Source: Alphaproteobacteria bacterium (lineage in GTDB: Bacteria > Pseudomonadota > Alphaproteobacteria > UBA828). From it: a DNA stretch of 64,000 nt. How positions within the stretch are numbered: position 1 is the stretch's first letter; each line of letters starts with the position of its first letter. Below the pieces are notes generated by a model. That model did no database searches, was not told the DNA's origin, and saw nothing but the letters and a program-made list of their open reading frames with translations. Positions 11,809 through 41,984 of this stretch are shown piece by piece. The DNA lies in the NCBI GenBank assembly GCA_965214705.1, contig CBDCCI010000001.1, positions 480,001 to 544,000 of the forward strand. Direction: 5' to 3'. Both the position numbers and the translations under genes were made by a program.

Positions 11809-11814
11809 CGGCGC

Positions 11815-16442: not shown

Positions 16443-16448
16443 CGGCGC

Positions 16449-17690: not shown

Positions 17691-18327
17691 GACGCCCGCT
17701 CGCTTCGGCCCCGCGCAACGGCGCCAAAGCGCCGACGCACGACCGAACCTGTCTCCGCTTGAGCCGGGCTGACAGCCCTCGGCTCACACCCCGCTCAGTC
17801 CTCGCAGCGTGCGCCCGCATGCCTGCCGAAAGACCGGCGCGAGCGTCGATTTTATGCGCAACTCTGCTGCCGGTGGATGCCGCCTGACGCTGACATCAGC
17901 GCACTTTCCACATAGCTCAACTTCGCCTCTCGTGGCCCGCGGCTTCGTTCAAAAGGGTTGGGCAGGCTCTCTCTCGAGAGCCTGCCCAACCCTTAACCAT
18001 GTTCAACTGCACATAATGAATTGGCCTGTATCGGTCGTGCGCAGCAGGACCGATACAGGCATTGAGCTGAGCCGCGCTGCACGGCCGTAGTGCCGGGCTA
18101 TGGGGAAAGTAACCGCTGGGTGGGAGCCGATTAGGCCGAAGCGGTGCAACCTGTTGGTGTCGCTGGCGGCGCCGGCACTCTGAATCTCCACTTATCAGGT
18201 TGCGACGCGGCTGTGCAGGGGCTCGCGACGATGTTTCGCCGCCGGGCAGCACGAAGCGGGCGCAGGAGCGGTCGCGGCGCGGCGGCCGGGGGGACTGTTG
18301 TCGGACCTTGTCGGTTCTGACGCATCG

Positions 18328-19548: not shown

Positions 19549-19551
19549 CGG

Positions 19552-20406
19552 TCAGGCCTGGGCAGGACGCGGAAACTCCAGCAGGTCCAGGGGCGACGGC
19601 GTGGCGGACGTCTTGTCGTGAGCAAGGTGAAGGTAGCGCATGGTCGAGCGGATTGAGGTGTGCCCGAGGCGGCGTTGGATGACATGCAGCTCGACGCCGG
19701 CCTCGAGGAGCCCGGTGGCGTAGCAATGGCGCAGCGTGTGGATCCCGCCGGGCTTGGCGATCCCGGCTTTGTCCTTGGCTCGATCGTAAACGTGTGCTGG
19801 CCCATGGCGCGTCATCGGCCGGCCGGGAATCCGACCGGGGAACAGCCAGTGCTCGGGCCGTACCCGCTGCCAGTACTCGCGCAGCTCGTCGAGCAGCCGG
19901 GGCGAGAGCGGGACGTAGCGGTCCTTGTTGCCCTTGCCCTGATCGACGCGCAGGCACATCCGCTGTGAGTCGATATCGCTGATCTGCAACCGGCCGAGCT
20001 CGCTCGCCCGAAGCCCCGCTGCATAGGCCGTCATCAGCAAGGCGCGGTGCTTGCGGTTGATGGTGACGCTGAACAGCCGCACCAGTTCGTCTTGGTTGAG
20101 CAGTACGGGCAGGGTGGAAGGCGTCTTGGCGAAGGGCAGATAGAAGTGCGGCTCGGGCAAGCCCAGCGTGATGCGATAGAGGAAGCGGATCCCTTGGCGA
20201 GCGCTGTTGCAGCTCTGCCAAGCCAGCCCCCGCTCTTCGTGAAGAAAGATGAGGTACTCCTGGACTTCCTCCGCTGAGATGTGCTCGGGGCTGCGACCGT
20301 AGTGAACCGCGAGCCCGGAGACCGAGTTGAGGTAGGACTTCCTGGTGTTCTCGGCGAAGCCGCGAACCGTCATGTCGTTGATCATGCGCTGGCGAAGTGC
20401 CGTCAT
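19552..20406 (-). CDS. Tyrosine recombinase of element B
   Basis: GLRASE, GKGNKDR, HTLRH, LGH and TMRY motifs. Confidence 0.92.
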   Translation of the reverse strand: MTALRQRMINDMTVRGFAENTRKSYLNSVSGLAVHYGRSPEHISAEEVQEYLIFLHEERGLAWQSCNSARQGIRFLYRITLGLPEPHFYLPFAKTPSTLPVLLNQDELVRLFSVTINRKHRALLMTAYAAGLRASELGRLQISDIDSQRMCLRVDQGKGNKDRYVPLSPRLLDELREYWQRVRPEHWLFPGRIPGRPMTRHGPAHVYDRAKDKAGIAKPGGIHTLRHCYATGLLEAGVELHVIQRRLGHTSIRSTMRYLHLAHDKTSATPSPLDLLEFPRPAQA

Positions 20407-20630
20407 GGGGCGTCTCCCTCTGGGTTTGGTCTGTCACGAAGACACGCCCATGCTCTTGCTCGCCGGCTTGGCGGTCGACGACCATCGATCAACGAGGGAG
20501 AAACAGGATTCGACCCTGCGCCCAGACGCTGGAGCGAACGGCCACACTCAACTTACGCGCGGCAAGGAGATCACTCTGGGCACCCGGCGGCCGAGGCGCC
20601 CCGCCGCGGAACGCGGCTCAGTTCAGGACG

Positions 20631-21585
20631 GATTATGTTGCGCCGGTGGTTATGTTGCGGCCCGGCGCTGGGCGGCGCAGCTGCACGCGCTTTGCGGTTT
20701 CTCGGCAACATAACCTCAGTCCCGCGGGGAGGGTCGCGTGATGCCGCGCGACGCTTCCGAGCTGGCACGGCGCCTCGCGCGCGACGCCGAGGCGGTCTGC
20801 CGCCACTATCTGTCGAAGGGTCGGCGTCAGGGCCGCTACTGGATGGTGGGCGACGTGCGCAACACGCCCGGCCGGTCGATGTACGTGCGGCTGAGCGGGC
20901 CGGAGGCCGGCCCTGGGGCCGCCGGGCGCTGGAGCGATGCGGCCTCGGCCGAGCACGGCGACCTGCTCGACGTGATCCGCGAGAGCTGCGGGCTCACGGA
21001 GTTCCGCGAGGTCGCCGAGGAGGCGCGGCGCTTCCTGTCGCTGCCCCGGGCCGAACCGCCGGTCGCGTCAAGAGCGCCCGCCCCGAGGGGCTCGGCCGAA
21101 GCTGCGCGCAGGCTCTGGGCGATCGCCAGACCGATCGCCGGCACGCTGGCCGAGGCGTACCTGCGCAACCGCGGGATCGTACATCTGACGAGCTGCGAAG
21201 CGCTCCGCTTCCATCCGCGCTGCTGGTATCGCCCGGATGGGCATGCGCCGACCGAGACCTGGCCGGCGATGATCGCCGCCGTCACCGACCTCTCGGGCGC
21301 GATCACCGGCGTGCATCGCACCTGGATCGCCCCGGACGGGTTGGGCAAGGCGCCGATCGATACGCCGCGACGCGCGATGGGCGACCTTCTCGGCCATGCC
21401 GTCCGGTTCGGTGCGGCCGGCAACGTCCTCGCCGCCGGCGAAGGCATCGAGACGATGCTGTCGCTGCGATGCGCGCTGCCCGCCATGCCCATGGCGGCGG
21501 CGCTCTCGGCGAACCACCTCGCCGCCCTCGAACTGGCTGCCGGTCTGCGACGGCTCTACATCGCGCGAGACAACGATCCCGCAGG
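20631..21585. repeat. Left arm of the 955-bp inverted repeat (partner 27895-28788 + 36219-36279)
   Basis: Toprim translations are identical up to ARDNDPAG; the right arm is split by element A copy 4. Confidence 0.9.
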
Positions 21586-21766
21586 ACGGCGTGCGGCGGG
21601 AACCCTGGCCGATCGCGCGCGGGGCGCTGGCGTCGAGGCGCTGACGCTCGTGCCCGCGCTGGACGACTTCAACGGCGACCTGCGCCGGCTCGGCGTCGAG
21701 GTGCTGAGTGGCCGCCTGCATACCCAACTCGCGCTGACCGATAGGCCCCTCGTGGGATCAACATAG
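20738..21766 (+). CDS. Toprim domain (DUF7146 + Toprim) primase-like protein, RIT-borne copy 1
   Basis: AEAVCRHYL, EHGDLLD, GVHRTW, GEGIET, IARDND and DDFNGDL motifs. Confidence 0.88.
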   Translation: MMPRDASELARRLARDAEAVCRHYLSKGRRQGRYWMVGDVRNTPGRSMYVRLSGPEAGPGAAGRWSDAASAEHGDLLDVIRESCGLTEFREVAEEARRFLSLPRAEPPVASRAPAPRGSAEAARRLWAIARPIAGTLAEAYLRNRGIVHLTSCEALRFHPRCWYRPDGHAPTETWPAMIAAVTDLSGAITGVHRTWIAPDGLGKAPIDTPRRAMGDLLGHAVRFGAAGNVLAAGEGIETMLSLRCALPAMPMAAALSANHLAALELAAGLRRLYIARDNDPAGRRAAGTLADRARGAGVEALTLVPALDDFNGDLRRLGVEVLSGRLHTQLALTDRPLVGST

Positions 21767-21822
21767 CTTCCATCACCCTGCATCGTCGGGAAACTCGCGC
21801 CTCCAACCACAAGGAGGCCAAC

Positions 21823-23070
21823 ATGTTCGATGACATCTTCTTCCCCTACACCGCCGACAAGTATCGAGAGGCGCCGCTGGTGGAGCAGCGGGAGCGATAC
21901 CTCGCTCATCTCAAGGCGACCGGCGCGAGACGGTCGACCTTGCGCAAGTGCGCCAACGATCAGCTGAGTCTGGTGCGTCTTCTCAACCTCGAAGATGGCG
22001 AACCGGTGGACCGGTCGCGGATCGAGGCAGCCGCGACGATATGGGCGCGGCCCGGAGGTCGTCGGTGCGACCGAGCCGCAACACCGAAGACGCGCGACCG
22101 CTTCGTCAGCCACGGTGTTCGCTGGCTCGCTTTCCTGGGCTGGCTCGACGAGGTCGATGACGACCGCCATCCGCATCACGCCGAGGTCCAGGCCTTCGCA
22201 CGATGGTCGCGCGAGGAACACGGGCTCTCCGATGCGACCGTGCAGAGCTATTGCAAAGCGGCCGACCACTTCTTCCTGCACCTGGCTGCCAAGGGCGTGC
22301 AGTTGAGCGCGGTCGGCATGACCGACATCGACGATGCCATGGCGGCGGAGCATGAGCGGGGTGCCTGGAGCCGCCGGACGCGGCATGATTATGCGCAGCG
22401 GCTGAGAGCGTTCTTCCTGTTCGCCGAGATGCGCGGCTGGTGCCGAGAGGGCCTTGCCGCGGGCATCGTGGCGCCCCGCTTCATGGCCGACGAGGCCGTG
22501 CCCAAGGGGCTGCCGCGCGAGGATGTCGTGCGCTTGCTGGCGTCGGTTACGGGCGACCGGGCCATCGACAAGCGCGATCGGGCGATCCTGATGCTGTTCA
22601 TCGCATACGGGCTTCGGACGGCAGAGGTCGGCGGGCTGCAGCTCGATGACCTGGACTGGGAGAACGCGATGCTCCGGGTCCGCTGTCCGAAACCGGGACG
22701 CACTCATCTGTGGCCGCTGTCGCAGGGCGTGGGCCACGCCATCCTGTGCTACATCAGGGAGGCGCGGCCGTCCGGCTTCGGGCGCAGTCTCTTCTTGACA
22801 ACACGCGCGCCGATCCGACCGCTCGACCGGAAGGCCTTGGGCAAGATCGTCCGCGATCGGCTGGCTGGCATCGGCGTCGTCACCGGGCGACGCGGGGCTC
22901 ACGCCCTGCGGCATGCCGCAGCCCAGCATCTGCTGGATCGGGGCACGTCGATGAAGGTGATCGGCGACTTCCTCGGGCACCGAGATCCGACCTCCACCAC
23001 CATCTACGCCAAGGTCGACCTCGCTGCGCTTCGCGAAGTAGCGGCTCTCGACATGGAGGGCCTGGTATGA
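21823..23070 (+). CDS. RitA-type tyrosine recombinase
   Basis: RDRAIL, YGLR..E, HALRH, LGH and TTIYAKVD motifs. RBS AAGGAGG. Confidence 0.9.
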   Translation: MFDDIFFPYTADKYREAPLVEQRERYLAHLKATGARRSTLRKCANDQLSLVRLLNLEDGEPVDRSRIEAAATIWARPGGRRCDRAATPKTRDRFVSHGVRWLAFLGWLDEVDDDRHPHHAEVQAFARWSREEHGLSDATVQSYCKAADHFFLHLAAKGVQLSAVGMTDIDDAMAAEHERGAWSRRTRHDYAQRLRAFFLFAEMRGWCREGLAAGIVAPRFMADEAVPKGLPREDVVRLLASVTGDRAIDKRDRAILMLFIAYGLRTAEVGGLQLDDLDWENAMLRVRCPKPGRTHLWPLSQGVGHAILCYIREARPSGFGRSLFLTTRAPIRPLDRKALGKIVRDRLAGIGVVTGRRGAHALRHAAAQHLLDRGTSMKVIGDFLGHRDPTSTTIYAKVDLAALREVAALDMEGLV

Positions 23071-23714
23071 ACCTGCGAGAAGCGATCGAACGCTACGTGC
23101 TCTGGCGACAGGCTCACGGCGCGAAGTTCACGAGCGGCGCGAGCTTGTTGCGCGGCTTCCTTCACCATGCCGATGGCGAAGCCGCCTGCGACGCGATCAA
23201 CGCCGGGCAGGTACGGGCGTATCTCGCGGGCGAAGGCGTGTCGAGGCGCCACTGCGAGAACAGATACTATGCGCTTGCCGGCTTCTGGCGCCATGCGATC
23301 AGCCGCGGCCATGCGTCCCGCTCACCGATGCCGGCCGACGCACCGAGATCGCCCGTCCGAGCGCCGCCCTACATCTACTCGCGCGACGAACTTGCGCGCC
23401 TGTTCGACCCCGCGACCGTGGAAGCGAGCCGGCGCCGCGCAGTCCAGCTGGACGCGGTGACGTTCCGGACGCTGCTTCTGCTCTTGAACGAAGCCGCTAC
23501 GCGGAGTTAGCGGCGTAGAGTTCATTCATTTCCGAGGCGTCGCGGGTGCCGTTTGTTCTGTGCGTTCGCTTCCCGGTTGCGTCAGTGGCGCTCCGCCCGT
23601 CGGGTGGCGGATCCCCAGCAGCCTCCCGATCACCAGTGGTTAGCATCGACCCCTGCGACGGACCGTCGCCGGATCGGTCCGGCGGCGCGCCGTCGCGATC
23701 CAGGGAGATCGATA

Positions 23715-24593
23715 ATGACCGGGACCGCGTGCGACACGAACACCGTCACCCCTCTTCGCCAGCGCATGGAGGAGCAGCTCCGCATCGCCAATCTGGCCGC
23801 GAGCACGTCCAAGGCCTACATCTGCGAGATCAAGAACCTGGCCAGGTACTACGACGCCTCGCCGGACGAGCTCGACGCCGAGCAGGTGCGCCAGTGGTAC
23901 CTGGGGCGGATCGACAAGGGGCTCAGTCCGGGCACGACCAACGTCTCCTTCGCCGCGCTGAACTTCCTCTACATCGACACACTCGGCTGGCCTGACCATG
24001 TCGCCGGCCTGCGCTCCCGCAAGAAGCCCGGCAAGCTGCCGCGCTACATGTCGGAGCAGGAGGTCGAGCACCTCATCCTTGCGACACCCGACCTCCGCCA
24101 CCGTGCTGCCATTGTCACCGGCTATGGCGGCGGGCTCCGCATCTCCGAGACCTTGGCCATCAAGGTCGGCGACATCCTGTCGGAGAAGAAGCTGCTGCAC
24201 ATCCCCTCCGGCAAAGGCGGCACCGAGAGAATGGCACCGTTGCCGGACATCGTCATCCACTACTTGCGCGTCTACTACAGGAACATCTGGCCGCGTCCGA
24301 CGAGCTGGCTCTTCTACGGCGTCTCGCTCGACAGGCCCATCGCAACGGAGACCTTGCAGGCCGCCTTCAGGAGGGCGCGCGACATTGCCGAGCTCGACCG
24401 CAGCTACACCTTCCATTGCCTGCGCCATTCGGCGGCGACCCATCTCCTCGAGCGCGGCGGCGATATCGAGGTGATCCGGGACATGCTCGGCCATCGAAGC
24501 GCGAACACGACCCGTCACTACGCCCGCGTCACCGGCAAGATGTTCGAGGGCCTCGACCACCCGATCTCAGGCTTCGCAGCGTTGCGCAACTGA
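23715..24593 (+). CDS. Tyrosine recombinase of element A
   Basis: Identical to copy 1. Confidence 0.92.
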   Translation: MTGTACDTNTVTPLRQRMEEQLRIANLAASTSKAYICEIKNLARYYDASPDELDAEQVRQWYLGRIDKGLSPGTTNVSFAALNFLYIDTLGWPDHVAGLRSRKKPGKLPRYMSEQEVEHLILATPDLRHRAAIVTGYGGGLRISETLAIKVGDILSEKKLLHIPSGKGGTERMAPLPDIVIHYLRVYYRNIWPRPTSWLFYGVSLDRPIATETLQAAFRRARDIAELDRSYTFHCLRHSAATHLLERGGDIEVIRDMLGHRSANTTRHYARVTGKMFEGLDHPISGFAALRN

Positions 24594-24599
24594 CGGCGC

Positions 24600-25841
24600 G
24601 TGGAGGCCGAACGCGCGGGCGTGGCGGAGATCTTCCGCCGCGCCGGCGCCGCTTTCCGTGAGCGCCACAAAGGGCGCATCGACGCCGCCCGGCTCAAGGT
24701 CATGGGCGCCATCGAGGCGTGCCGCACCGCCGTGCTCGGCGGCCACATGTACGCCTGCGAGGGCTGCGGGCGCGAGCATCCGCTCTTCAACTCCTGCCGC
24801 AACCGCCACTGCCCCACCTGCCAGGGTCTCGCCGCCAACCTCTGGAGCGAGGAGCGCGCCGGGGACATCCTGCCGGTGCCCTACTTCCATGTGGTCTTCA
24901 CCCTGCCCAAGGAGGTTGCCGCCATTGCCTTCTGCAACCGCAGGGTGGTGTTCGACATCCTCTTCCGGGCCGTCGCCGAGACCCTGCGCACCATCGCCGC
25001 CGATCCCCGCCACGGCGGCATGCGCATCGGCGGCACCGCGGTCCTCCATACCTGGGATCAGAAGCTCCGCTTCCACCCGCACCTGCACGTGGTCGTGCCC
25101 AACGCGGGCTTCGACGTAGACAGTGGCGAGTGGAAGACGGGGAGCACCACCTTCCTCGCCCCCGTCAAGGTCCTCGGCAGCCTGTTCCGCCGCCTCTTCC
25201 TCGAGGAGCTCGCCCGCGCCCACGGCCGGGGGGACCTGGAGTTCCACGGCACCCTCGCCCACCTCGCCAATCCCGGCGAGTTCCACGCCACGCTTGCCGC
25301 CGCCCGGGCCAGGGACTGGGTGGTCTACGCCAAGCGGCCCTTCCGCGGGCCTGAGCAGGTCTTCCGGTACCTCTCGCACTACACGCACAGGATCGCCATC
25401 TCCGACAGCCGCATCGTCTCCTTCGACGGCGAGACGGTCTCCTTCCGCCACCGAAAGCCCAAGGCGCCGGGGCAGAGAAAGCCGCGCTACGGCATCGCCA
25501 CCGTGAGCGCCGACGAGTTCATCCGCCGCTTCCTGAGGCACGTCCTGCCGGACGGCATGCACCGCATTCGCTACTTCGGCATCCTCGCCAACGGCTGCCG
25601 CGCCAGCACGCTGGAGAGAGCACGCCAGGCTCTCGGCGCCCTCGGCTGCGCCGCCCCCGAGGGAAGCGTGGACGGCGCTCGGGCCGAGCCCGACGAAGAG
25701 CCCGAGATCGGCACCGCGCCCGTGGCCTGCCCCCACTGCGGCGGCGTCATGCGCCTCGTCCGCGAAATCCGCCGCCGCCATGAGCCCCGCTCGACGCGCG
25801 GCCCGCCGGCGCTGCCGCCGACCCACAGGGGGAAACCGTGA
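24600..25841 (+). CDS. IS91-family Y2 transposase
   Basis: Identical to copy 1. Confidence 0.93.
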   Translation: MEAERAGVAEIFRRAGAAFRERHKGRIDAARLKVMGAIEACRTAVLGGHMYACEGCGREHPLFNSCRNRHCPTCQGLAANLWSEERAGDILPVPYFHVVFTLPKEVAAIAFCNRRVVFDILFRAVAETLRTIAADPRHGGMRIGGTAVLHTWDQKLRFHPHLHVVVPNAGFDVDSGEWKTGSTTFLAPVKVLGSLFRRLFLEELARAHGRGDLEFHGTLAHLANPGEFHATLAAARARDWVVYAKRPFRGPEQVFRYLSHYTHRIAISDSRIVSFDGETVSFRHRKPKAPGQRKPRYGIATVSADEFIRRFLRHVLPDGMHRIRYFGILANGCRASTLERARQALGALGCAAPEGSVDGARAEPDEEPEIGTAPVACPHCGGVMRLVREIRRRHEPRSTRGPPALPPTHRGKP

Positions 25842-26675
25842 GACGCCCGCTCGCTTCGGCCCCGCGCAACGGCGCCAAAGCGCCGACGCACGACCGAACC
25901 TGTCTCCGCTTGAGCCGGGCTGACAGCCCTCGGCTCACACCCCGCTCAGTCCTCGCAGCGTGCGCCCGCATGCCTGCCGAAAGACCGGCGCGAGCGTCGA
26001 TTTTATGCGCAACTCTGCTGCCGGTGGATGCCGCCTGACGCTGACATCAGCGCACTTTCCACATAGCTCAACTTCGCCTCTCGTGGCCCGCGGCTTCGTT
26101 CAAAAGGGTTGGGCAGGCTCTCGAGAGAGAGCCTGCCCAACCCTTAACCTTGTACGGCGCGGGCCTACGATTCGGGGAGGCGACTCGCCTCTCCCTTGCC
26201 GACGTCGATCTGGCGAACGCCGTCCTGACCATCCGGGCCACCAAGTTCTACAAGAGCCGGCTGGTCCCGGTCGGCCCTCAGCTTGCAGCGCTTCTGGGAA
26301 GCCACGTGACCCTGCGCCAGCGCGCCGGACTGGTGGAAGGCCGGGACGCGTTGCTCCTGGCGAACCGGGACGGGACGCGGCTCGCCAGTAGCACGGTGCT
26401 GGCCGCGTTCGACACGCTGAGGCGCCTCGCCGGGGTCCACCGTCCCGCGGCGGGGCGGACGATCCCGCGGCTGCACGATCTGCGGCACAGCTTCGCCGTC
26501 CACCGCCTGACGAGCTGGTATCGGCAAGGCGCTGATGTGCAACGGCTGCTGCCGGTGCTCTCCACCTATCTCGGTCACGCCGATCTGGAGGGCACGAAGA
26601 TCTATCTGTCGATGACGCCGGAGCTCCTGGAAGAGGCGTCGCTACGGTTCGCCCGCTATGCGGCGGGAGGTCGGC

Positions 26676-27671
26676 ATGCCTGAGCCCGCAACCCTCGGCC
26701 CGTGGCTCCGCCGGTTCTTCACCGAGCACATCGTCACCGAACGCAATCTGGCCAGGAACACCCGCAAGAGCTACCGCGACACCTTCCGCCTGTTGTTGCC
26801 CTTCGTCAGCCGAAAGGTGCGCAAGCCCGTAGACCGGCTCGCGGTATGGGACATCACATCCGGATGCGTGCGGGAGTTCCTCGCCCATGTCGAGACGGAT
26901 CGAGGTTGCTCCGTCCGGACTCGCAATCAGCGACTGGCTGCGATCCAGGCCTTCGCGCGCTTCGTCGGCAGCCGCGACCCGGTCCATGTCGAATGGTGCG
27001 GTCATATCCGGGCGATCGCGTCGAAGAGATCGGTGCCGCCGCCGGTCGGATGGCTGACCCGGGCGGAGATGGAGGCGATGCTGGCGCCGCCCGACCGCAA
27101 GACCCGGCGGGGCCGGAGCGAGTACGCGCTTATGCTCTTCCTGTACAACACCGGCGCAAGAGTGTCCGAGGCCATCCAGCTGAGGGTATGCGATCTGCAG
27201 ATCGGAACGCGGAAAGGCGGGCACGATCTCGCCACCTTGCACGGCAAGGGCGGCAAGACGCGCCAGTGCCCGCTATGGCCGGAAACCGAGCGCGTACTCG
27301 CGGAGGAGATCAGCGATCGCGCAGGCGATGACGCGGTGTTCGTCAGCCGGCTCGGGACACCGTTCACCCGCTTCGGCGTCTATCGGCTGATCGAGCGGTG
27401 TGCGGCCCAGGTCCCGGAACTGGCCGATCGGACGGTGACGCCGCACGTGATCCGGCACACCACGGCCTGCCACCTGGCCCTCGCCGATGTGGACATCAAC
27501 ACCATCCGTGCCTGGCTCGGACACGTCTCGATCAGCACGACCAACATCTATACCGAGATCGACCTGACGCTGAAGGCCAACGCCGTCGCGATGTGCGAGG
27601 TGGGCCAGCCGCGACCCGCTCGGTCATGGAAGGAGGACAAGGACCTCATGGCCTTCCTGAAGGCGTTGTAA
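26676..27671 (+). CDS. RitC-type tyrosine recombinase
   Basis: SYRDTF, RTRNQRLAAI, TGARVSE, GKGGK, PHVIRH, WLGH and TTNIY motifs. Confidence 0.9.
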   Translation: MPEPATLGPWLRRFFTEHIVTERNLARNTRKSYRDTFRLLLPFVSRKVRKPVDRLAVWDITSGCVREFLAHVETDRGCSVRTRNQRLAAIQAFARFVGSRDPVHVEWCGHIRAIASKRSVPPPVGWLTRAEMEAMLAPPDRKTRRGRSEYALMLFLYNTGARVSEAIQLRVCDLQIGTRKGGHDLATLHGKGGKTRQCPLWPETERVLAEEISDRAGDDAVFVSRLGTPFTRFGVYRLIERCAAQVPELADRTVTPHVIRHTTACHLALADVDINTIRAWLGHVSISTTNIYTEIDLTLKANAVAMCEVGQPRPARSWKEDKDLMAFLKAL

Positions 27672-27695
27672 GCGGCGACGGGGCACCGGCCTCGG

Positions 27696-28742
27696 TCACC
27701 CCGTCCCAACTGTCCGCCGGCGCATGAAGCGAACCGCGTCCTCGGGGGCGAGTTGGATGCGCACAAATGCGCGGACGGCGCCCAAGTCGAACGCTTGCAG
27801 ATCCTCGTTGAGGTCGCCGAGGCGCGGAGCGAGGGCTAGCGCTTCGATGCCGGCCGCTTCGGCTCGTTCGGTGAGCACCGCGACCGCCGTATCGCCTGCG
27901 GGATCGTTGTCTCGCGCGATGTAGAGCCGTCGCAGACCGGCAGCCAGTTCGAGGGCGGCGAGGTGGTTCGCCGAGAGCGCCGCCGCCATGGGCATGGCGG
28001 GCAGCGCGCATCGCAGCGACAGCATCGTCTCGATGCCTTCGCCGGCGGCGAGGACGTTGCCGGCCGCACCGAACCGGACGGCATGGCCGAGAAGGTCGCC
28101 CATCGCGCGTCGCGGCGTATCGATCGGCGCCTTGCCCAACCCGTCCGGGGCGATCCAGGTGCGATGCACGCCGGTGATCGCGCCCGAGAGGTCGGTGACG
28201 GCGGCGATCATCGCCGGCCAGGTCTCGGTCGGCGCATGCCCATCCGGGCGATACCAGCAGCGCGGATGGAAGCGGAGCGCTTCGCAGCTCGTCAGATGTA
28301 CGATCCCGCGGTTGCGCAGGTACGCCTCGGCCAGCGTGCCGGCGATCGGTCTGGCGATCGCCCAGAGCCTGCGCGCAGCTTCGGCCGAGCCCCTCGGGGC
28401 GGGCGCTCTTGACGCGACCGGCGGTTCGGCCCGGGGCAGCGACAGGAAGCGCCGCGCCTCCTCGGCGACCTCGCGGAACTCCGTGAGCCCGCAGCTCTCG
28501 CGGATCACGTCGAGCAGGTCGCCGTGCTCGGCCGAGGCCGCATCGCTCCAGCGCCCGGCGGCCCCAGGGCCGGCCTCCGGCCCGCTCAGCCGCACGTACA
28601 TCGACCGGCCGGGCGTGTTGCGCACGTCGCCCACCATCCAGTAGCGGCCCTGACGCCGACCCTTCGACAGATAGTGGCGGCAGACCGCCTCGGCGTCGCG
28701 CGCGAGGCGCCGTGCCAGCTCGGAAGCGTCGCGCGGCATCAC
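27696..28742 (-). CDS. Toprim domain primase-like protein, RIT-borne copy 2
   Basis: Identical to 20738-21766 for ~282 aa, then a different but homologous C-terminus (GDLNEDL). Confidence 0.88.
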   Translation of the reverse strand: MMPRDASELARRLARDAEAVCRHYLSKGRRQGRYWMVGDVRNTPGRSMYVRLSGPEAGPGAAGRWSDAASAEHGDLLDVIRESCGLTEFREVAEEARRFLSLPRAEPPVASRAPAPRGSAEAARRLWAIARPIAGTLAEAYLRNRGIVHLTSCEALRFHPRCWYRPDGHAPTETWPAMIAAVTDLSGAITGVHRTWIAPDGLGKAPIDTPRRAMGDLLGHAVRFGAAGNVLAAGEGIETMLSLRCALPAMPMAAALSANHLAALELAAGLRRLYIARDNDPAGDTAVAVLTERAEAAGIEALALAPRLGDLNEDLQAFDLGAVRAFVRIQLAPEDAVRFMRRRTVGTG

Positions 28743-29096
28743 GCGACCCTCCCCGCGGGACTGAGGTTATGTTGCCGAGAAACCGCAAGGTTAAGGGTTG
28801 GGCAGGCTCTCTCTCGAGAGCCTGCCCAACCCTTTTGAACGAAGCCGCGGGCCACGAGAGGCGAAGTTGAGCTATGTGGAAAGTGCGCTGATGTCAGCGT
28901 CAGGCGGCATCCACCGGCAGCAGAGTTGCGCATAAAATCGACGCTCGCGCCGGTCTTTCGGCAGGCATGCGGGCGCACGCTGCGAGGACTGAGCGGGGTG
29001 TGAGCCGAGGGCTGTCAGCCCGGCTCAAGCGGAGACAGGTTCGGTCGTGCGTCGGCGCTTTGGCGCCGTTGCGCGGGGCCGAAGCGAGCGGGCGTC

Positions 29097-30338
29097 TCAC
29101 GGTTTCCCCCTGTGGGTCGGCGGCAGCGCCGGCGGGCCGCGCGTCGAGCGGGGCTCATGGCGGCGGCGGATTTCGCGGACGAGGCGCATGACGCCGCCGC
29201 AGTGGGGGCAGGCCACGGGCGCGGTGCCGATCTCGGGCTCTTCGTCGGGCTCGGCCTGAGCGCCGTCCACGCTTCCCTCGGGGGCGGCGCAGCCGAGGGC
29301 GCCGAGAGCCTGGCGTGCTCTCTCCAGCGTGCTGGCGCGGCAGCCGTTGGCGAGGATGCCGAAGTAGCGAATGCGGTGCATGCCGTCCGGCAGGACGTGC
29401 CTCAGGAAGCGGCGGATGAACTCGTCGGCGCTCACGGTGGCGATGCCGTAGCGCGGCTTTCTCTGCCCCGGCGCCTTGGGCTTTCGGTGGCGGAAGGAGA
29501 CCGTCTCGCCGTCGAAGGAGACGATGCGGCTGTCGGAGATGGCGATCCTGTGCGTGTAGTGCGACAGGTACCGGAAGACCTGCTCAGGCCCGCGGAAGGG
29601 CCGCTTGGCGTAGACCACCCAGTCCCTGGCCCGGGCGGCGGCAAGCGTGGCGTGGAACTCGCCGGGATTGGCGAGGTGGGCGAGGGTGCCGTGGAACTCC
29701 AGGTCCCCCCGGCCGTGGGCGCGGGCGAGCTCCTCGAGGAAGAGGCGGCGGAACAGGCTGCCGAGGACCTTGACGGGGGCGAGGAAGGTGGTGCTCCCCG
29801 TCTTCCACTCGCCACTGTCTACGTCGAAGCCCGCGTTGGGCACGACCACGTGCAGGTGCGGGTGGAAGCGGAGCTTCTGATCCCAGGTATGGAGGACCGC
29901 GGTGCCGCCGATGCGCATGCCGCCGTGGCGGGGATCGGCGGCGATGGTGCGCAGGGTCTCGGCGACGGCCCGGAAGAGGATGTCGAACACCACCCTGCGG
30001 TTGCAGAAGGCAATGGCGGCAACCTCCTTGGGCAGGGTGAAGACCACATGGAAGTAGGGCACCGGCAGGATGTCCCCGGCGCGCTCCTCGCTCCAGAGGT
30101 TGGCGGCGAGACCCTGGCAGGTGGGGCAGTGGCGGTTGCGGCAGGAGTTGAAGAGCGGATGCTCGCGCCCGCAGCCCTCGCAGGCGTACATGTGGCCGCC
30201 GAGCACGGCGGTGCGGCACGCCTCGATGGCGCCCATGACCTTGAGCCGGGCGGCGTCGATGCGCCCTTTGTGGCGCTCACGGAAAGCGGCGCCGGCGCGG
30301 CGGAAGATCTCCGCCACGCCCGCGCGTTCGGCCTCCAC
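29097..30338 (-). CDS. IS91-family Y2 transposase (copy 4)
   Basis: One amino-acid difference from copy 1. Confidence 0.93.
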   Translation of the reverse strand: MEAERAGVAEIFRRAGAAFRERHKGRIDAARLKVMGAIEACRTAVLGGHMYACEGCGREHPLFNSCRNRHCPTCQGLAANLWSEERAGDILPVPYFHVVFTLPKEVAAIAFCNRRVVFDILFRAVAETLRTIAADPRHGGMRIGGTAVLHTWDQKLRFHPHLHVVVPNAGFDVDSGEWKTGSTTFLAPVKVLGSLFRRLFLEELARAHGRGDLEFHGTLAHLANPGEFHATLAAARARDWVVYAKRPFRGPEQVFRYLSHYTHRIAISDSRIVSFDGETVSFRHRKPKAPGQRKPRYGIATVSADEFIRRFLRHVLPDGMHRIRYFGILANGCRASTLERARQALGALGCAAPEGSVDGAQAEPDEEPEIGTAPVACPHCGGVMRLVREIRRRHEPRSTRGPPALPPTHRGKP

Positions 30339-31125
30339 GCGCCGTCAGTTGCGCAACGCTGCGAAGCCTGAGATCGGGTGGTCGAGGCCCTCGAACATCT
30401 TGCCGGTGACGCGGGCGTAGTGACGGGTCGTGTTCGCGCTTCGATGGCCGAGCATGTCCCGGATCACCTCGATATCGCCGCCGCGCTCGAGGAGATGGGT
30501 CGCCGCCGAATGGCGCAGGCAATGGAAGGTGTAGCTGCGGTCGAGCTCGGCAATGTCGCGCGCCCTCCTGAAGGCGGCCTGCAAGGTCTCCGTTGCGATG
30601 GGCCTGTCGAGCGAGACGCCGTAGAAGAGCCAGTTCGTCGGACGCGGCCAGATGTTCCTGTAGTAGACGCGCAAGTAGTGGATGACGATGTCCGGCAACG
30701 GTGCCATTCTCTCGGTGCCGCCTTTGCCGGAGGGGATGTGCAGCAGCTTCTTCTCCGACAGGATGTCGCCGACCTTGATGGCCAAGGTCTCGGAGATGCG
30801 GAGCCCGCCGCCATAGCCGGTGACAATGGCAGCACGGTGGCGGAGGTCGGGTGTCGCAAGGATGAGGTGCTCGACCTCCTGCTCCGACATGTAGCGCGGC
30901 AGCTTGCCGGGCTTCTTGCGGGAGCGCAGGCCGGCGACATGGTCAGGCCAGCCGAGTGTGTCGATGTAGAGGAAGTTCAGCGCGGCGAAGGAGACGTTGG
31001 TCGTGCCCGGACTGAGCCCCTTGTCGATCCGCCCCAGGTACCACTGGCGCACCTGCTCGGCGTCGAGCTCGTCCGGCGAGGCGTCGTAGTACCTGGCCAG
31101 GTTCTTGATCTCGCAGATGGTTAAG

Positions 31126-33217
31126 CCGAACTTCCAGTGTGGGATAGTCAAAGAACCGTTGTGCGGCAGGGGTTTCGGCGAGTTTCGAAGCGACGATTAC
31201 TGGACAGGTTTGGCGGTGGTCATCCCCTTTTCGGTGAGCGCGGGCGCAGGATGGGGCCGCAGCCCGAGCAATGCGAACGCCCTTTCCTGCAGTTCGGTCG
31301 GCTTGGTCAGGGCGGGCACGGCGAAGTCGGTTCCGGTGGCGATCTCAGTGGCAGCAAGCGTGCCGAGATGGCCGAGGAGATCGCGGAAGTCGCACACCGC
31401 AAGTCCATCATCCGTCTTTCGGCGCTTGTCCTTGCGCCGGGCCTTTTCCGAGCGTTCCGGCGGCGCCACCGGGTTCGCGGACAGCGGCGCTCCGTCCTCC
31501 TCGGCGAACAGCAGCGGCGCCAGCCTGCGGCGCATGTGCCACTCGACATACCAAGCCAGCATGCAGATCAGAAGATGCGCCCGTACTCGGTCGTCGCGCC
31601 AGTGGAAGATCGGGCGGATCCGCAACGACACCGTCTTGAGCGAGCGGAAGGCGCGCTCGACGCGTGACAGGCTCTTGTAGACGCGGACCGCCTCGACGTC
31701 CTCGATCTCGTCCTCGTCCACGTTGGTGCGTATGACGTAGAGACCGTCGAGGGCGGCCTCGGCGTCGATCGACGCCCGGTCGCGTTCGCAACTGAAGGTG
31801 CCGCTGCCCTCGTCGAATTCGAAGCGGAAGTGCTTGGCCATCTTGCGGCGGCGCAAGGTTCCCAGCCGACGGTTCAACTCGTCGCGGTCGATGTCGCCGG
31901 CGGCGTGGCGCGCGGCGAAATCGCGCGCGTCCGTCTCGGTCGCATTGAGCAGCCCGTCGCGGTTGCGCTTGCGCTCGGCCGCCAGAACCGGGTTGTAGCA
32001 GACGATCAGCCTCTCGCCGGGATAGTCCGGCGTGGTCACCCGCGCGAGGCCCCAGGTGTCGAACAGGCCGGGCGTGACATGCCCCCGGTCGACGAGCTTG
32101 CGGATCGAGGATGCGCGCAGCGCCGTGATCCAGTCGATGCCGTTGGGCGCGAGGTCGCGGTCGATGCGGGTCTGCGCGATCATGCCGCGGTCCCCCACCA
32201 ACACCACCCGCCGGATGCCGAAGCTGTCGCGGACCTTGCGCACCTGGCTGGCCAGAGTCATCGGGTCGCCGGTGTTGCCGGCGAAGGCCTCGATCGAGAC
32301 CGGACAGCCATCGCGGGTGCAGAGGAGGCCGTAGACGATCTGCGGGCGGTCGCCCCGGCGATCCCTCGAATAGCCGCGCTTCGCCATGGGGCAGGCGTTG
32401 CCCTCCATGTAGCTCGAGGACACGTCGTAGAGGACGAGATCGTCCTCTCCGAGATGGCGCCGGGCGAGCTTGCGCTCGATCGCGCCCTGTCGCGCGCCCA
32501 GCCAGTCCATGGCGGCGTAGAGTTCGTCGACGCTGACGCCTTCGACGCCGAGCAGGGCGGCGAGGGTGGTTGTGCCGGCCGCTCCCAGTTCGCGCTCGAC
32601 GCGCAGCTTGGCGCCGGGCCGGATCAGGCGGGCGACGATCATGGCGATGACGAGGGCCCTGCGGCGATCGGGCCGGTGGAAGATGACGCGGTCGAGGCCG
32701 ATGTCGCGAAGGGTGCCGAGAACGGCGCTGACGGCGCCGTGCGCCCGGCTGGCGCGCAGTTCGACGTCGGCGCTGTCGGGATTGAGGGCGGGTCCGCGCT
32801 TGAGGGCGCGTTTGAGGGCTTCGATGGCGTGTTCCGGGAGGGCGGAGAGGTTGCACAGGGTGCGCTTCTTGGGTTTTCCGTCCTGCCAGTAGGACTGTCT
32901 GAGGAGGTGGCAGCGGGAGTTTCCGGACCGGGTGGTTTCGATGTGCATATCGATCTGCCTAGCGAATCGCGGCAATCATATCGGAAAGGCTTGGGAATGC
33001 GGAGCAATTATCGTAACGAGAAAACTATCTACTGACTAGTATTCAGGTTTTGGTGGATGCGCCGGGACGGCGTGATCCAGCGCTGGAGCGCCGAATCGCG
33101 GCGGTTTCGGCGATCATTTCGGGAATTTCGCGCCAAACCGGGCGCTAAACTGCGCAGAAAGGGCGGAAACAGGCAAAATCCGGCCAGATCGGCAATCAGA
33201 TGCTAACGGAAGTTCGG
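31126..33217 (-). mobile_element. IS1634-family IS, 2,092 bp
   Basis: IRs CCGAACTTCC/GGAAGTTCGG. 6-bp TSD GTTAAG (31120-31125, 33218-33223). Confidence 0.9.
31197..32948 (-). CDS. IS1634-family DDE transposase
   Basis: LYDVSSSY, GYSRD, FAGNTGD, VGDRGM, DGLYVIRTN and YKSL..VERAFR..K motifs. Confidence 0.9.
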   Translation of the reverse strand: MHIETTRSGNSRCHLLRQSYWQDGKPKKRTLCNLSALPEHAIEALKRALKRGPALNPDSADVELRASRAHGAVSAVLGTLRDIGLDRVIFHRPDRRRALVIAMIVARLIRPGAKLRVERELGAAGTTTLAALLGVEGVSVDELYAAMDWLGARQGAIERKLARRHLGEDDLVLYDVSSSYMEGNACPMAKRGYSRDRRGDRPQIVYGLLCTRDGCPVSIEAFAGNTGDPMTLASQVRKVRDSFGIRRVVLVGDRGMIAQTRIDRDLAPNGIDWITALRASSIRKLVDRGHVTPGLFDTWGLARVTTPDYPGERLIVCYNPVLAAERKRNRDGLLNATETDARDFAARHAAGDIDRDELNRRLGTLRRRKMAKHFRFEFDEGSGTFSCERDRASIDAEAALDGLYVIRTNVDEDEIEDVEAVRVYKSLSRVERAFRSLKTVSLRIRPIFHWRDDRVRAHLLICMLAWYVEWHMRRRLAPLLFAEEDGAPLSANPVAPPERSEKARRKDKRRKTDDGLAVCDFRDLLGHLGTLAATEIATGTDFAVPALTKPTELQERAFALLGLRPHPAPALTEKGMTTAKPVQ

Positions 33218-33524
33218 GTTAAGGGTTGGGCAGGCTCTCTCTCGAGAGCCTGCCCAACCCTTTTGAACGAAGCCGCGGGCCACGAGAGGCGAAGTTGAGC
33301 TATGTGGAAAGTGCGCTGATGTCAGCGTCAGGCGGCATCCACCGGCAGCAGAGTTGCGCATAAAATCGACGCTCGCGCCGGTCTTTCGGCAGGCATGCGG
33401 GCGCACGCTGCGAGGACTGAGCGGGGTGTGAGCCGAGGGCTGTCAGCCCGGCTCAAGCGGAGACAGGTTCGGTCGTGCGTCGGCGCTTTGGCGCCGTTGC
33501 GCGGGGCCGAAGCGAGCGGGCGTC

Positions 33525-34766
33525 TCACGGTTTCCCCCTGTGGGTCGGCGGCAGCGCCGGCGGGCCGCGCGTCGAGCGGGGCTCATGGCGGCGGCGGATT
33601 TCGCGGACGAGGCGCATGACGCCGCCACAGTGGGGGCAGGCCACGGGCGCGGTGCCGATCTCGGGCTCTTCGTCGGGCTCGGCCCGAGCGCCGTCCACGC
33701 TTCCCTCGGGGGCGGCGCAGCCGAGGGCGCCGAGAGCCTGGCGTGCTCTCTCCAGCGTGCTGGCGCGGCAGCCGTTGGCGAGGATGCCGAAGTAGCGAAT
33801 GCGGTGCATGCCGTCCGGCAGGACGTGCCTCAGGAAGCGGCGGATGAACTCGTCGGCGCTCACGGTGGCGATGCCGTAGCGCGGCTTTCTCTGCCCCGGC
33901 GCCTTGGGCTTTCGGTGGCGGAAGGAGACCGTCTCGCCGTCGAAGGAGACGATGCGGCTGTCGGAGATGGCGATCCTGTGCGTGTAGTGCGAGAGGTACC
34001 GGAAGACCTGCTCAGGCCCGCGGAAGGGCCGCTTGGCGTAGACCACCCAGTCCCTGGCCCGGGCGGCGGCAAGCGTGGCGTGGAACTCGCCGGGATTGGC
34101 GAGGTGGGCGACGGTGCCGTGGAACTCCAGGTCCCCCCGGCCGTGGGCGCGGGCGAGCTCCTCGAGGAAGAGGCGGCGGAACAGGCTGCCGAGGACCTTG
34201 ACGGGGGCGAGGAAGGTGGTGCTCCCCGTCTTCCACTCGCCACTGTCTACGTCGAAGCCCGCGTTGGGCACGACCACGTGCAGGTGCGGGTGGAAGCGGA
34301 GCTTCTGATCCCAGGTATGGAGGACCGCGGTGCCGCCGATGCGCATGCCGCCGTGGCGGGGATCGGCGGCGATGGTGCGCAGGGTCTCGGCGACGGCCCG
34401 GAAGAGGATGTCGAACACCACCCTGCGGTTGCAGAAGGCAATGGCGGCAACCTCCTTGGGCAGGGTGAAGACCACATGGAAGTAGGGCACCGGCAGGATG
34501 TCCCCGGCGCGCTCCTCGCTCCAGAGGTTGGCGGCGAGACCCTGGCAGGTGGGGCAGTGGCGGTTGCGGCAGGAGTTGAAGAGCGGATGCTCGCGCCCGC
34601 AGCCCTCGCAGGCGTACATGTGGCCGCCGAGCACGGCGGTGCGGCACGCCTCGATGGCGCCCATGACCTTGAGCCGGGCGGCGTCGATGCGCCCTTTGTG
34701 GCGCTCACGGAAAGCGGCGCCGGCGCGGCGGAAGATCTCCGCCACGCCCGCGCGTTCGGCCTCCAC
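33525..34766 (-). CDS. IS91-family Y2 transposase (copy 5)
   Basis: One amino-acid difference from copy 1. Confidence 0.93.
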   Translation of the reverse strand: MEAERAGVAEIFRRAGAAFRERHKGRIDAARLKVMGAIEACRTAVLGGHMYACEGCGREHPLFNSCRNRHCPTCQGLAANLWSEERAGDILPVPYFHVVFTLPKEVAAIAFCNRRVVFDILFRAVAETLRTIAADPRHGGMRIGGTAVLHTWDQKLRFHPHLHVVVPNAGFDVDSGEWKTGSTTFLAPVKVLGSLFRRLFLEELARAHGRGDLEFHGTVAHLANPGEFHATLAAARARDWVVYAKRPFRGPEQVFRYLSHYTHRIAISDSRIVSFDGETVSFRHRKPKAPGQRKPRYGIATVSADEFIRRFLRHVLPDGMHRIRYFGILANGCRASTLERARQALGALGCAAPEGSVDGARAEPDEEPEIGTAPVACPHCGGVMRLVREIRRRHEPRSTRGPPALPPTHRGKP

Positions 34767-34772
34767 GCGCCG

Positions 34773-35651
34773 TCAGTTGCGCAACGCTGCGAAGCCTGAG
34801 ATCGGGTGGTCGAGGCCCTCGAACATCTTGCCGGTGACGCGGGCGTAGTGACGGGTCGTGTTCGCGCTTCGATGGCCGAGCATGTCCCGGATCACCTCGA
34901 TATCGCCGCCGCGCTCGAGGAGATGGGTCGCCGCCGAATGGCGCAGGCAATGGAAGGTGTAGCTGCGGTCGAGCTCGGCAATGTCGCGCGCCCTCCTGAA
35001 GGCGGCCTGCAAGGTCTCCGTTGCGATGGGCCTGTCGAGCGAGACGCCGTAGAAGAGCCAGCTCGTCGGACGCGGCCAGATGTTCCTGTAGTAGACGCGC
35101 AAGTAGTGGATGACGATGTCCGGCAACGGTGCCATTCTCTCGGTGCCGCCTTTGCCGGAGGGGATGTGCAGCAGCTTCTTCTCCGACAGGATGTCGCCGA
35201 CCTTGATGGCCAAGGTCTCGGAGATGCGGAGCCCGCCGCCATAGCCGGTGACAATGGCAGCACGGTGGCGGAGGTCGGGTGTCGCAAGGATGAGGTGCTC
35301 GACCTCCTGCTCCGACATGTAGCGCGGCAGCTTGCCGGGCTTCTTGCGGGAGCGCAGGCCGGCGACATGGTCAGGCCAGCCGAGTGTGTCGATGTAGAGG
35401 AAGTTCAGCGCGGCGAAGGAGACGTTGGTCGTGCCCGGACTGAGCCCCTTGTCGATCCGCCCCAGGTACCACTGGCGCACCTGCTCGGCGTCGAGCTCGT
35501 CCGGCGAGGCGTCGTAGTACCTGGCCAGGTTCTTGATCTCGCAGATGTAGGCCTTGGACGTGCTCGCGGCCAGATTGGCGATGCGGAGCTGCTCCTCCAT
35601 GCGCTGGCGAAGAGGGGTGACGGTGTTCGTGTCGCACGCGGTCCCGGTCAT
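34773..35651 (-). CDS. Tyrosine recombinase of element A (copy 5)
   Basis: Identical to copy 1. Confidence 0.92.
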   Translation of the reverse strand: MTGTACDTNTVTPLRQRMEEQLRIANLAASTSKAYICEIKNLARYYDASPDELDAEQVRQWYLGRIDKGLSPGTTNVSFAALNFLYIDTLGWPDHVAGLRSRKKPGKLPRYMSEQEVEHLILATPDLRHRAAIVTGYGGGLRISETLAIKVGDILSEKKLLHIPSGKGGTERMAPLPDIVIHYLRVYYRNIWPRPTSWLFYGVSLDRPIATETLQAAFRRARDIAELDRSYTFHCLRHSAATHLLERGGDIEVIRDMLGHRSANTTRHYARVTGKMFEGLDHPISGFAALRN

Positions 35652-36276
35652 TATCGATCTCCCTGGATCGCGACGGCGCGCCGCCGGACCGATCCGGCGA
35701 CGGTCCGTCGCAGGGGTCGATACTAACCACTGGTGATCGGGAGGCTGCTGGGGATCCGCCACCCGACGGGCGGAGCGCCACTGACGCAACCGGGAAGCGA
35801 ACGCACAGAACAAACGGCACCCGCGACGCCTCGGAAATGAATGAACTCTACGCCGCTAACTCCGCGTAGCGGCTTCGTTCAAGTAGGCCTTGGACGTGCT
35901 CGCGGCCAGATTGGCGATGCGGAGCTGCTCCTCCATGCGCTGGCGAAGAGGGGTGACGGTGTTCGTGTCGCACGCGGTCCCGGTCATTATCGATCTCCCT
36001 GGATCGCGACGGCGCGCCGCCGGACCGATCCGGCGACGGTCCGTCGCAGGGGTCGATACTAACCACTGGTGATCGGGAGGCTGCTGGGGATCCGCCACCC
36101 GACGGGCGGAGCGCCACTGACGCAACCGGGAAGCGAACGCACAGAACAAACGGCACCCGCGACGCCTCGGAAATGAATGAACTCTACGCCGCTAACTCCG
36201 CGTAGCGGCTTCGTTCAAAGCGCGTGCAGCTGCGCCGCCCAGCGCCGGGCCGCAACATAACCACCGGCGCAACATA

Positions 36277-36468
36277 ATCGGTGAACTTCCCCGGCGCACC
36301 CGGAGGCGCGAGGCGGACGTAGAGGGATCGGCCGCGCCCGCCGTCGAGGTCGCCCGCAACCCAGTACCGGCCCCGGCGGCGTCCGTAGGGCAGGTATCGG
36401 CGGCACACCTCCTCGGCGCGCTCGGCGAGCGCGGCGGCGACGCGAGCGGCGGCGCTCACGATGCGCAC
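36277..36468 (-). pseudogene. N-terminal part of the host Toprim gene cut by the RIT
   Basis: AEEVCRRYL..GRYWVAGD..GRSLYVRL..PGKFTD, followed directly by the RIT end TATGTTG. Confidence 0.85.
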
Positions 36469-41891: not shown

Positions 41892-41984
41892 GGGCCACCC
41901 CTTAATCCGATTCGCCAATGCATGACCAGGGAAAAGTGCAGGCGGGACCGCGACCGAAATCTGCGGCCCCGCCTGCGTGCCGCC

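Follow-up and report, generated by a model that had tools for sequence, protein, structure and literature searches.

We analysed 64,000 nucleotides from the genome of an Alphaproteobacteria bacterium of the lineage UBA828 (assembly GCA_965214705.1, contig CBDCCI010000001.1, positions 480,001 to 544,000 of the forward strand), a stretch that we call the window and whose own positions serve as coordinates below. Between 20631 and 36279 the window holds a RIT element (RIT, recombinase in trio; the elements of Van Houdt et al. and Ricker et al. 2013). Comparison with its relatives places this element in a distinct clade of RIT transposons that have a Toprim gene inserted just inside each tip, and whose fixed target is a short spacer within a Toprim gene. 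The anatomy of the elements suggests, with a probability that we put at about 0.6, that the inner copy rescues the disrupted Toprim gene in either orientation. In what follows, N-part and C-part are the 5' and 3' fragments of the interrupted host Toprim gene, L and H numbers denote comparison loci and plasmid records, and C1 and C3 are contigs of the source genome.

RIT elements are widespread, and to our knowledge nobody has reproduced their movement. Table 1 of a 2023 review (PMC10214605) lists both target specificity and mode of RIT movement as not tested. Judged from its sequence, the element in the window is a RIT by every criterion that could be tested; the recombinase trio, the gene overlaps, the tips and the core palindrome all bear out what a sequence-only reading of the window had called it. 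A Phage_integrase domain is found in each of RitA, RitB and RitC (415, 316 and 337 aa), and R..HxxR..Y contexts are visible in the translations. RitA is the longest of the three, and the accessible part of one report (PMC8138268) describes RitA with two core-binding domains. The genes follow each other in the order ritA-ritB-ritC, as they do in 80 related loci, with an ATGA overlap of ritA and ritB in the intact copy and a second overlap of ritB with ritC (26658 versus 26683). The tip module is common to seven ordinary RITs, and a core of the TTATGT-N8-ACATAA type lies at one end in all of them. Mobility is indicated by comparison, through identical copies at five loci and an orthologous empty site.

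When intact, the element is 5,552 bp long. In the window its two arms (20631-21585 versus 27895-28788 plus 36216-36279) form in self-comparison a perfect inverted repeat of 955 bp, made up of 894 nt (20692-21585 and 27895-28788) and 64 nt (20631-20694 and 36216-36279), each 100% identical; the right arm is interrupted at 28788/36216, 64 bp from the tip, by a 7.4-kb nest of insertion sequences (ISs). Reading from the left, the ritA-side tip spacer (20627..20632, GACGGA on the plus strand) is followed by the ritA-side arm (20633..21585, plus strand), which opens with the tip module (20633-20740), where TTATGTTGCG occurs twice in direct and once in inverted orientation, and continues with the first 848 nt of the inner Toprim gene. 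This gene (20738..21766, plus strand) is intact and encodes 342 aa. Then come, all on the plus strand, the tyrosine recombinase genes ritA (21823..23070), ritB in a 5' part (23067..23482, its start, judged by its identity to the intact copy, forming an ATGA overlap with the end of ritA) and a 3' part (26150..26683), and ritC (26658..27671). The second inner Toprim gene (27696..28742, minus strand, 348 aa) is likewise intact and is the copy that faces the host promoter here. The ritC-side arm, on the minus strand, consists of its inner 894 bp (27895..28788) and its outermost 62 bp (36216..36277), whose plus-strand end reads ACATAA.

The interrupted host gene lies on the minus strand. Its N-part (36280..36468, 63-64 codons) starts at 36468 and reads ...APGKFTD into the right tip, and its C-part (14520..15329; Pfam DUF7146 3.5e-34 and Toprim_3 3.2e-22 on the translation) resumes with TDAATGEH at 15329. 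The C-part is separated from the tip by the 20-bp TTATGT-N8-ACATAA core and by two later insertions, the IS91-like copy B (15333-17998) and IS#2 (18017-20626), and the 20 bp are part of neither of these. The insertion is bordered by T-D codons on its N side (ACC GAT) and again on its C side (ACG GAT), so that the cut falls within a 6-bp spacer. Thus, the host gene that the sequence-only reading had described as cut at TD|AA is indeed entered at its T-D codons, but its C-part does not touch the tip and the break is not a clean one.

The fixed target is this 6-bp spacer, (G/C/T)AC(C/G)GA, at the codons T-D of a Toprim gene. The source genome (7.92 Mb in three contigs, no N) contains at least 13 intact Toprim paralogs, and GK(F/W)TDA... 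stands at the target point in 15 of its 15 uninterrupted Toprim copies. In four different Toprim paralogs the N-part ends at a tip of the element, and in all four the junction falls on one and the same nucleotide, ...AC(C) GA|TTATGTTGCG, in keeping with the earlier proposal that the element sits in Toprim genes at one site. The surroundings of the target can also be compared. In the source genome ssb lies upstream of it (36747-37193 in the window, minus strand) and a YAcAr/DUF2493-like gene lies downstream, past the insertions, while the cluster on three plasmids runs from a strawberry-notch gene through Toprim N-part, RIT and Toprim C-part to a DUF2493 gene.

Insertions that are clean on both sides (L005, L087, L089 and L090) give the structure of the junctions: the host N-part meets one tip, and the other tip is followed by the core, a 6-mer and the host C-part. 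On the coding strand of the target, this reads host ...K-(W/F)-[6-mer] TTATGTTGCG ... element ... CGCAACATAA-[6-mer']-TTATGT-N8-ACATAA-[6-mer]-host C-part. The core stands between RIT tip and host C-part in every related element seen, which agrees with the palindrome remarked at one end of published RITs in the accessible parts of that literature. In the window the N-side spacer (36278..36283, minus strand) is CACCGA on the coding strand and of host type, and the C-side spacer, GACGGA on the coding strand, is element-borne (15325..15332, minus strand, together with the last 2 bp of the core arm). The C1 copy has the same pair, CACCGA and GACGGA. A copy on C3 outside any Toprim gene has GATCGA on the N side, as does its empty site, and GACGGA on the C side, so that GACGGA is found at the C-side junction in three copies of the source genome. 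L090 has CACCGA and TACGGA on its N and C sides, and L087, a near-identical element, has TACGGA on both. Since the C-side 6-mer can be foreign to the target, these comparisons indicate that the element carries 6 bp along and that the C-side 6 bp come from its previous site.

Were the element to form a circle, that circle would contain ACATAA-6 bp-TTATGT, a sequence built like the core site of a tyrosine recombinase, and recombination of this core with the target 6-mer by the three recombinases would give the junctions observed. In the window, L005, L087, L089 and L090, reverse-complementing the carried 6-mer gives the tip-side 6-mer; as a general rule this fails in L088, L004, L009 and the ordinary RIT L012, and the tip-side 6-mer may be reset by arm conversion. 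Nor does the orientation of the N8 spacer track that of the element among the nine junctions read.

Copies of the RIT occupy five loci on the three contigs of the source genome, with eight arms among them: the window copy, the intact copy of 5,552 bp at C1:1589018-1594569, and three further copies. The fifth copy, on C3 (C3:1749817-1790946 of genome G000; L085 and L086), is intergenic at a target-like site, and both of its outer junctions lie in non-Toprim DNA, the left one reading ...GTGGATCGA|TTATGT and the right one core+GACGGA|GGCCGCTCC. The empty form of this site, ...GTGGATCGA|GGCCGC... and GTGGATC-GA/AA-GGCCGCTCC, is present in two genomes of the same genus (L092, L093), and an orthologous empty site is, at the level of genome comparison, proof of insertion. 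The C3 site matches the Toprim target at 13 of 18 positions by manual count. Because it resembles the target and contains no Toprim gene, we take targeting to go by sequence and not by homology to the genes in the arms. Among 20 other genomes of the genus, one has the element at 97% identity and six have distant matches only, at 64-76%. The ritC gene of the C3 copy is split by about 29.5 kb of other DNA, with a 12-bp overlap at the break.

The layout recurs well beyond this genome. Among the best 80 loci of a RitB scan that took one genome per species, eight (L004, L005, L006, L007, L009, L010, L020 and L028; RitB 61-88% identical to the query) carry Toprim genes that face inward, at one end or at both, and the other 72 have none. 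Five plasmid records (H1-H5, four of them read closely) contain the three recombinases and two toprim genes over at least 95% of the query; for a sixth (H6), with 76% query coverage, one toprim gene is listed. The plasmid collection holds 399 records with a Toprim homologue, 259 of which are typed conjugative. The homolog search that the sequence-only reading had proposed thus finds the layout again in eight of the 80 loci and in the five plasmid records, but its expectation that such elements always sit in a Toprim gene fails with the C3 copy. In seven ordinary RITs that the scan also returned, the inverted repeats measure only 41-105 bp and are homologous to the first ~107 bp of the arms. 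Their tips contain two direct WWATGTKGC motifs and lie directly beside ritA and ritC, and the core lies on one side of all seven.

Two of the armed relatives have further peculiarities. In L089 (plasmid pAA02), the segment 4626-7292 between one arm and ritC is cargo, consisting of a potassium-channel gene and an SLC13 permease gene. In L007, Toprim N-parts stand on both sides of the RIT, within inverted 3.4-kb host flanks that are 82% identical (1786-5181 and 10530-13924), an arrangement that probably arose by recombination between two insertions.

Both inner genes of the window score above the curated Pfam cut-offs (27 bits for DUF7146 and 27.2 bits for Toprim_3), with 143 bits (E 4e-42) for DUF7146 and 75-76 bits (E 3e-21 and 8e-21) for Toprim_3. 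Their first 848 nt are identical, after which their homologous C-termini diverge; together with the sharp borders of the arms, this confirms the earlier view of two real genes whose 5' parts have been homogenised. All nine of nine complete inner genes are open (342-351 aa), in elements with RitB identities to the query of only 61-88%, and pairwise dN/dS between lineages is 0.18-0.40. The acidic motifs of the Toprim fold are a Glu followed by DxD. Correspondingly, GEG.ET.LS and D.D..G are invariant in 8 inner and 13 host proteins, and all 89 invariant columns are common to the inner genes and the host paralogs. The inner Toprim genes therefore look functional, to judge by this conservation. In a maximum-likelihood tree, the 18 distinct inner sequences form one group (support 82/84) apart from the targets of the source genome, to which the inner genes are 44-50% identical in protein, and the two arms of each element pair together. 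A search of solved structures by sequence with the inner protein returned 0 matches. We also considered that the inner genes might be immune to insertion, as the window copies have AGC GAT in place of ACC GAT; this idea was rejected, for relatives keep the target, as TGG ACC GAT in the DNA of L005 and as W-T-D in the proteins of five others.

It is the position of these genes relative to the target that argues for rescue. By inserting in a Toprim gene on a plasmid or island, the RIT would truncate the host gene. As the tips are mirror images, however, either orientation places an intact Toprim gene 105 nt behind the truncated one. The host promoter would then drive the inner gene, through which the carrier plasmid or island would keep its Toprim function. 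The junction itself fits such coupling. Read in the phase of the target codons, the host frame crosses the tip without a stop until it reaches a TGA, which overlaps the inner ATG (GTGATG or ATGATG); a GGGAGG-like motif lies upstream of this ATG, and 8 of 8 lineages show the arrangement. The distances from tip to ATG (108, 108, 108, 108, 105 and 102 nt) differ by whole codons. Both orientations are in use, with the ritC side facing the host promoter in eight insertions and the ritA side in five, and with identical copies in the source genome divided 4 versus 1. Between host N-part and inner gene, a simple consensus scan found no terminator-like site, its single hit lying upstream of the host gene; it returned 0 promoter-like sites, with a consensus that is uninformative for this kind of organism. 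The rescue idea of the sequence-only reading is thus strengthened by the two orientations, the overlap of stop and start, the codon-multiple tips and the intact inner genes, all of them features of anatomy. From an RNA library, a contig of 410 nt (X20, 22 differences) runs from the host N-part across the tip into the start of the inner gene; it stems from a relative and may be DNA-derived, and we do not count it as evidence. The RNA libraries, consulted as contigs only, leave parts of the element without cover, from which nothing is concluded.

Several observations weigh against rescue. The tip has two open frames out of three in any case, which makes an open frame by itself a weak argument, and the rule of codon-multiple tips depends on only two lineages whose tips differ in length. 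The case as a whole is drawn from anatomy, and the circular form of the element, as well as which recombinase acts where, is inferred. With at least 13 intact paralogs in the source genome, any benefit would act on the carrier element and not on the cell. The coupling in the window has been destroyed by the 7.4-kb nest of insertions, the C3 copy lies outside any Toprim gene, and the ritA-side arm of L007 has lost its Toprim gene. Finally, inner genes of relatives retain the target 6-mer and so are not protected from insertion themselves.

The arms offer a second line of evidence on how these elements live. In four independent elements, they are 100% identical from the tip to a sharp border, which lies at about 955 bp in the window element and at about 600, 1100 and 400 bp in L005, L087 and L088, respectively, and beyond which identity falls to ~55-66%. 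This pattern indicates that the arms are kept identical by copying from the tips inward, in a process that is polar, tip-anchored and still active. A snap-back intermediate has been suggested for other RITs, as far as the accessible text of PMC5737581 goes, and by analogy it would fit as the source of arm copying. One may tentatively go further and picture the RITs of this clade as specialised gene-replacement parasites of conjugative plasmids and islands, which would destroy the Toprim gene already there, set their own allele behind its promoter and, at each move, regenerate their ends via snap-back or hairpin copying of the arms. Such copying would account for the perfect palindrome at the junction (ACATAA-6-TTATGT-N8-ACATAA-6-TTATGT) as well as for an arm identity that is anchored at the tips, and the three recombinases would act on the three core-like sites that adjoin one another. 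We hold this picture to be possible and no better than that.

Alternatively, the Toprim genes might serve the element itself, by priming or nicking a single-stranded or hairpin intermediate, so that the Toprim target would be incidental or a matter of homing. Such a role would be consistent with two intact inner copies under purifying selection, with a replicative or snap-back step as hinted at by arm copying that starts at the tips, and with the persistence of a copy outside any Toprim gene. Yet Toprim genes are absent from 72 of the 80 closest RIT loci, and the seven ordinary RITs share the tip and the core and have none either, so that RIT movement needs none; moreover, a single gene would suffice for the purpose, and a host junction that preserves the frame has no place in it. 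We therefore consider service to the element unlikely.

An origin of the arms as a by-product has similar difficulties. A target gene captured beside one tip could have been copied to the other end by tip-anchored conversion, and both copies would then be passengers without a role. Conversion from the tip inward is real and differs in extent between lineages (~400, 600, 955 and 1100 bp), so it could spread a captured gene; the loss of one Toprim copy in L007 and the unrelated cargo in L089 are also what one would expect of passengers. Against this stand the intactness of nine complete inner genes out of nine across elements with RitB 61-88% identical, dN/dS values well below 1, the retention of the catalytic motifs and the conserved overlap of stop and start. 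That the arms are nothing but passengers is, in our judgement, improbable.

The sequence-only reading had also offered the arms as homology guides for targeting, or as a switch that exchanges Toprim C-termini by inversion. With 955 bp at 100% identity, inversion by homologous recombination could occur, and identical copies in the two orientations exist within the source genome (4 versus 1); a swap of C-termini by inversion is possible and would be indistinguishable from insertion in the other orientation. In the sequencing runs consulted, which are available as contigs only, the contigs break at the arm borders. A guiding function is contradicted, however, by junctions that without exception lie at the very end of the tip, outside the homologous gene, by the 44-50% protein identity between the targets here and the inner genes, and by the C3 insertion in non-Toprim DNA that merely resembles the 18-bp site, and L005 occurs in both orientations although its arms are only 86% identical overall. 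Guide and switch alike thus have very little in their favour.

The remaining alternative, that the arms arose as an artefact of assembly or by a single inverted duplication, which had been named in advance as fatal to the proposal, draws on the extreme repeat-richness of the region and has virtually no chance of being correct, given eight arm copies at five loci on three contigs, the same architecture in 8 other genomes and in plasmid records, and, in a DNA run from another organism, a separate arm contig of 956 nt at 39.8-fold depth, about twice that of the core contigs (14.9-17.9).

The window copy of the RIT is crippled by later IS91-family insertions. One of the invaders is a 2,666-bp IS91-like repeat, which encodes a tyrosine recombinase and a Y2 transposase and belongs to the IS91 family by its domains (Y2_Tnp, E 2.7e-54; Zn_Tnp_IS91, E 4.3e-30); it gave 216 blastn pieces, roughly a hundred near-identical copies among the matches listed. 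Its copies in the window lie at 10698-13364, 15333-17998, 23483-26149, 28786-31119, 33217-35883 and, split, 37688-44766. Near its 3' end the element has a palindrome that comes in two forms with an inverted loop, CTCTCTCGAGAG and CTCGAGAGAGAG. Copy B (15333..17998, plus strand; tyrosine recombinase 15402-16442, Y2/IS91 transposase 16449-17690) sits inside the core of the RIT, the remainder of which occupies 17999..18016 (N8 at 18003-18010), and copy C (23483..26149, plus strand) splits ritB. The IS nest in the ritC-side arm (28789..36215, minus strand) comprises copy D (28786-31119 plus 35883-36218), a DDE_Tnp_1 element (31120-33216) and copy E (33217-35883); seen over 28786-36218, copy D is split after its base 336 by the DDE_Tnp_1 element and a complete second IS91-like copy, head to tail.

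The second invader, IS#2 (18017..20626, minus strand), is a diverged IS91-like element with a Y2 transposase (18328-19548) and a tyrosine recombinase (19552-20406), present in about a dozen copies in the source genome. Its Pfam profile, run on a 99.9% identical copy in L001, comprises Y2_Tnp (6.3e-59), Zn_Tnp_IS91 (3.7e-28) and Phage_integrase. IS91-family insertion sequences with an accessory tyrosine recombinase exist (ISfinder/TnPedia). The 2,666-bp repeat and IS#2 are like them in that each encodes Phage_integrase together with Zn_Tnp_IS91/Y2_Tnp, and both are secondary invaders, not part of the RIT. In the window, IS#2 has entered precisely where the 6-bp spacer meets the TTATGT arm of the core, in the C1 copy it lies there on the other strand, and in a Mesorhizobium plasmid a different IS91-plus-recombinase element occupies the same border. 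These insertions (window 18017-20626; L001 8563-11177; L088 about 2370-4995) come from two genera and lie on either strand, and they look like site-specific invasion of RIT recombination sites by IS91-plus-recombinase elements. Similar palindromes of 16 bp (AYGTTGAGCTCAACRT) also follow IS#2 copies at other places in the genome. Three RIT copies have an insertion at one and the same point of ritB, CTGCTC|TTG (window 23482/23483): an IS91-like copy in the window, another at C3:2310570, and IS#2 at C1:9387.

Other mobile DNA accompanies these elements. IS66-family elements are found inside an IS91-like copy (window 38995-43403) and inside the RIT core of the C1 copy (L001 11190-14100), the latter with an 8-bp duplication, GTTGAACA. 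Two unusually long IS66-type transposases of 745 and 774 aa, with coiled-coil N-terminal parts, lie at 50842-53957 and 61609-63933, in repeats that are 80% identical, one of them followed by a DruA-like gene (Pfam DruA, E 2.8e-38). A GIIM fragment (group II intron maturase domain, E 1e-17) is located at 13404-14000, between the host C-part and the next IS91-like copy.

In conclusion, a spare target gene in both ends would be an unusual way for a transposon to spare its carrier and, if the reading is true, a clear case of a transposon adapted to life inside conjugative elements. We regard the structural findings as secure, and rescue as the reading with the best support. New here are the core on the side of the C-part, the travelling 6-bp spacer, the tip-anchored identity of the arms and the overlap of the TGA of the host frame with the inner start. 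The 6-bp footprint links RITs to Tn554-like transposition, and the abrupt ends of arm identity, which differ between lineages, point to a further step of copying during transposition. The clade is an analysable system, with a defined target gene, clean junctions on both sides and an orthologous empty site, and natural variants are at hand in a cargo carrier, the loss of an arm gene and an off-target insertion. Our literature search found no link between RITs and Toprim genes, with the reservation that the end structures or this clade may already be described in Ricker et al. 2013, or in supplementary tables such as those of PMC3414803; it gave no matches for DUF7146, and nothing on Toprim arms in the literature on ritA or ritABC.

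Compared with published RITs, the elements of this clade have the same three adjacent, overlapping recombinase genes ritA-ritB-ritC, inverted tips in which short motifs recur, a palindrome on one side, identical copies in one genome, and a habit of inserting into conserved genes of mobile elements. According to the accessible portions of PMC3414803 and PMC2864759, published RITs choose genes such as radC of Tn4371-like integrative and conjugative elements (ICEs) and transposase genes. Published RITs, as described in the parts of that literature open to us, are ~3.5 kb long, with inverted repeats of 28-34 bp or palindromic ends of 47-51 bp. In contrast, the element described here measures 5.55 kb and has arms of ~1 kb, each holding a whole gene of the target's own family.

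A second comparison is with Tn554 and the strand-biased circularizing elements, which carry six bp of the donor site to one side of the new insertion, as stated in the accessible sections of the review cited above (PMC10214605). Like these, the RIT clade combines several tyrosine recombinases, site-specific insertion and six carried bp, and donor-derived 6 bp are indeed found at its new sites, a likeness of behaviour that implies no membership in the Tn554 family. The recombinases belong to other subfamilies (RitA/B/C here, TnpA/B or IntA/B there), Tn554 and the strand-biased circularizing elements have neither long inverted arms nor a copy of the target gene, and the Tn554-like behaviour of the RIT clade is known here from sequence comparison alone.

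Integrating phages and islands rebuild the gene that they enter, be it a tRNA gene, icd or prfC. The RITs of this clade would resemble them in that the element supplies sequence to keep its target gene working after insertion. Such phages and islands do so with a short duplicate of one end of the target, one attachment site and one orientation, whereas the RITs bring a complete, divergent paralogue with its own start codon, and they bring it in both ends.

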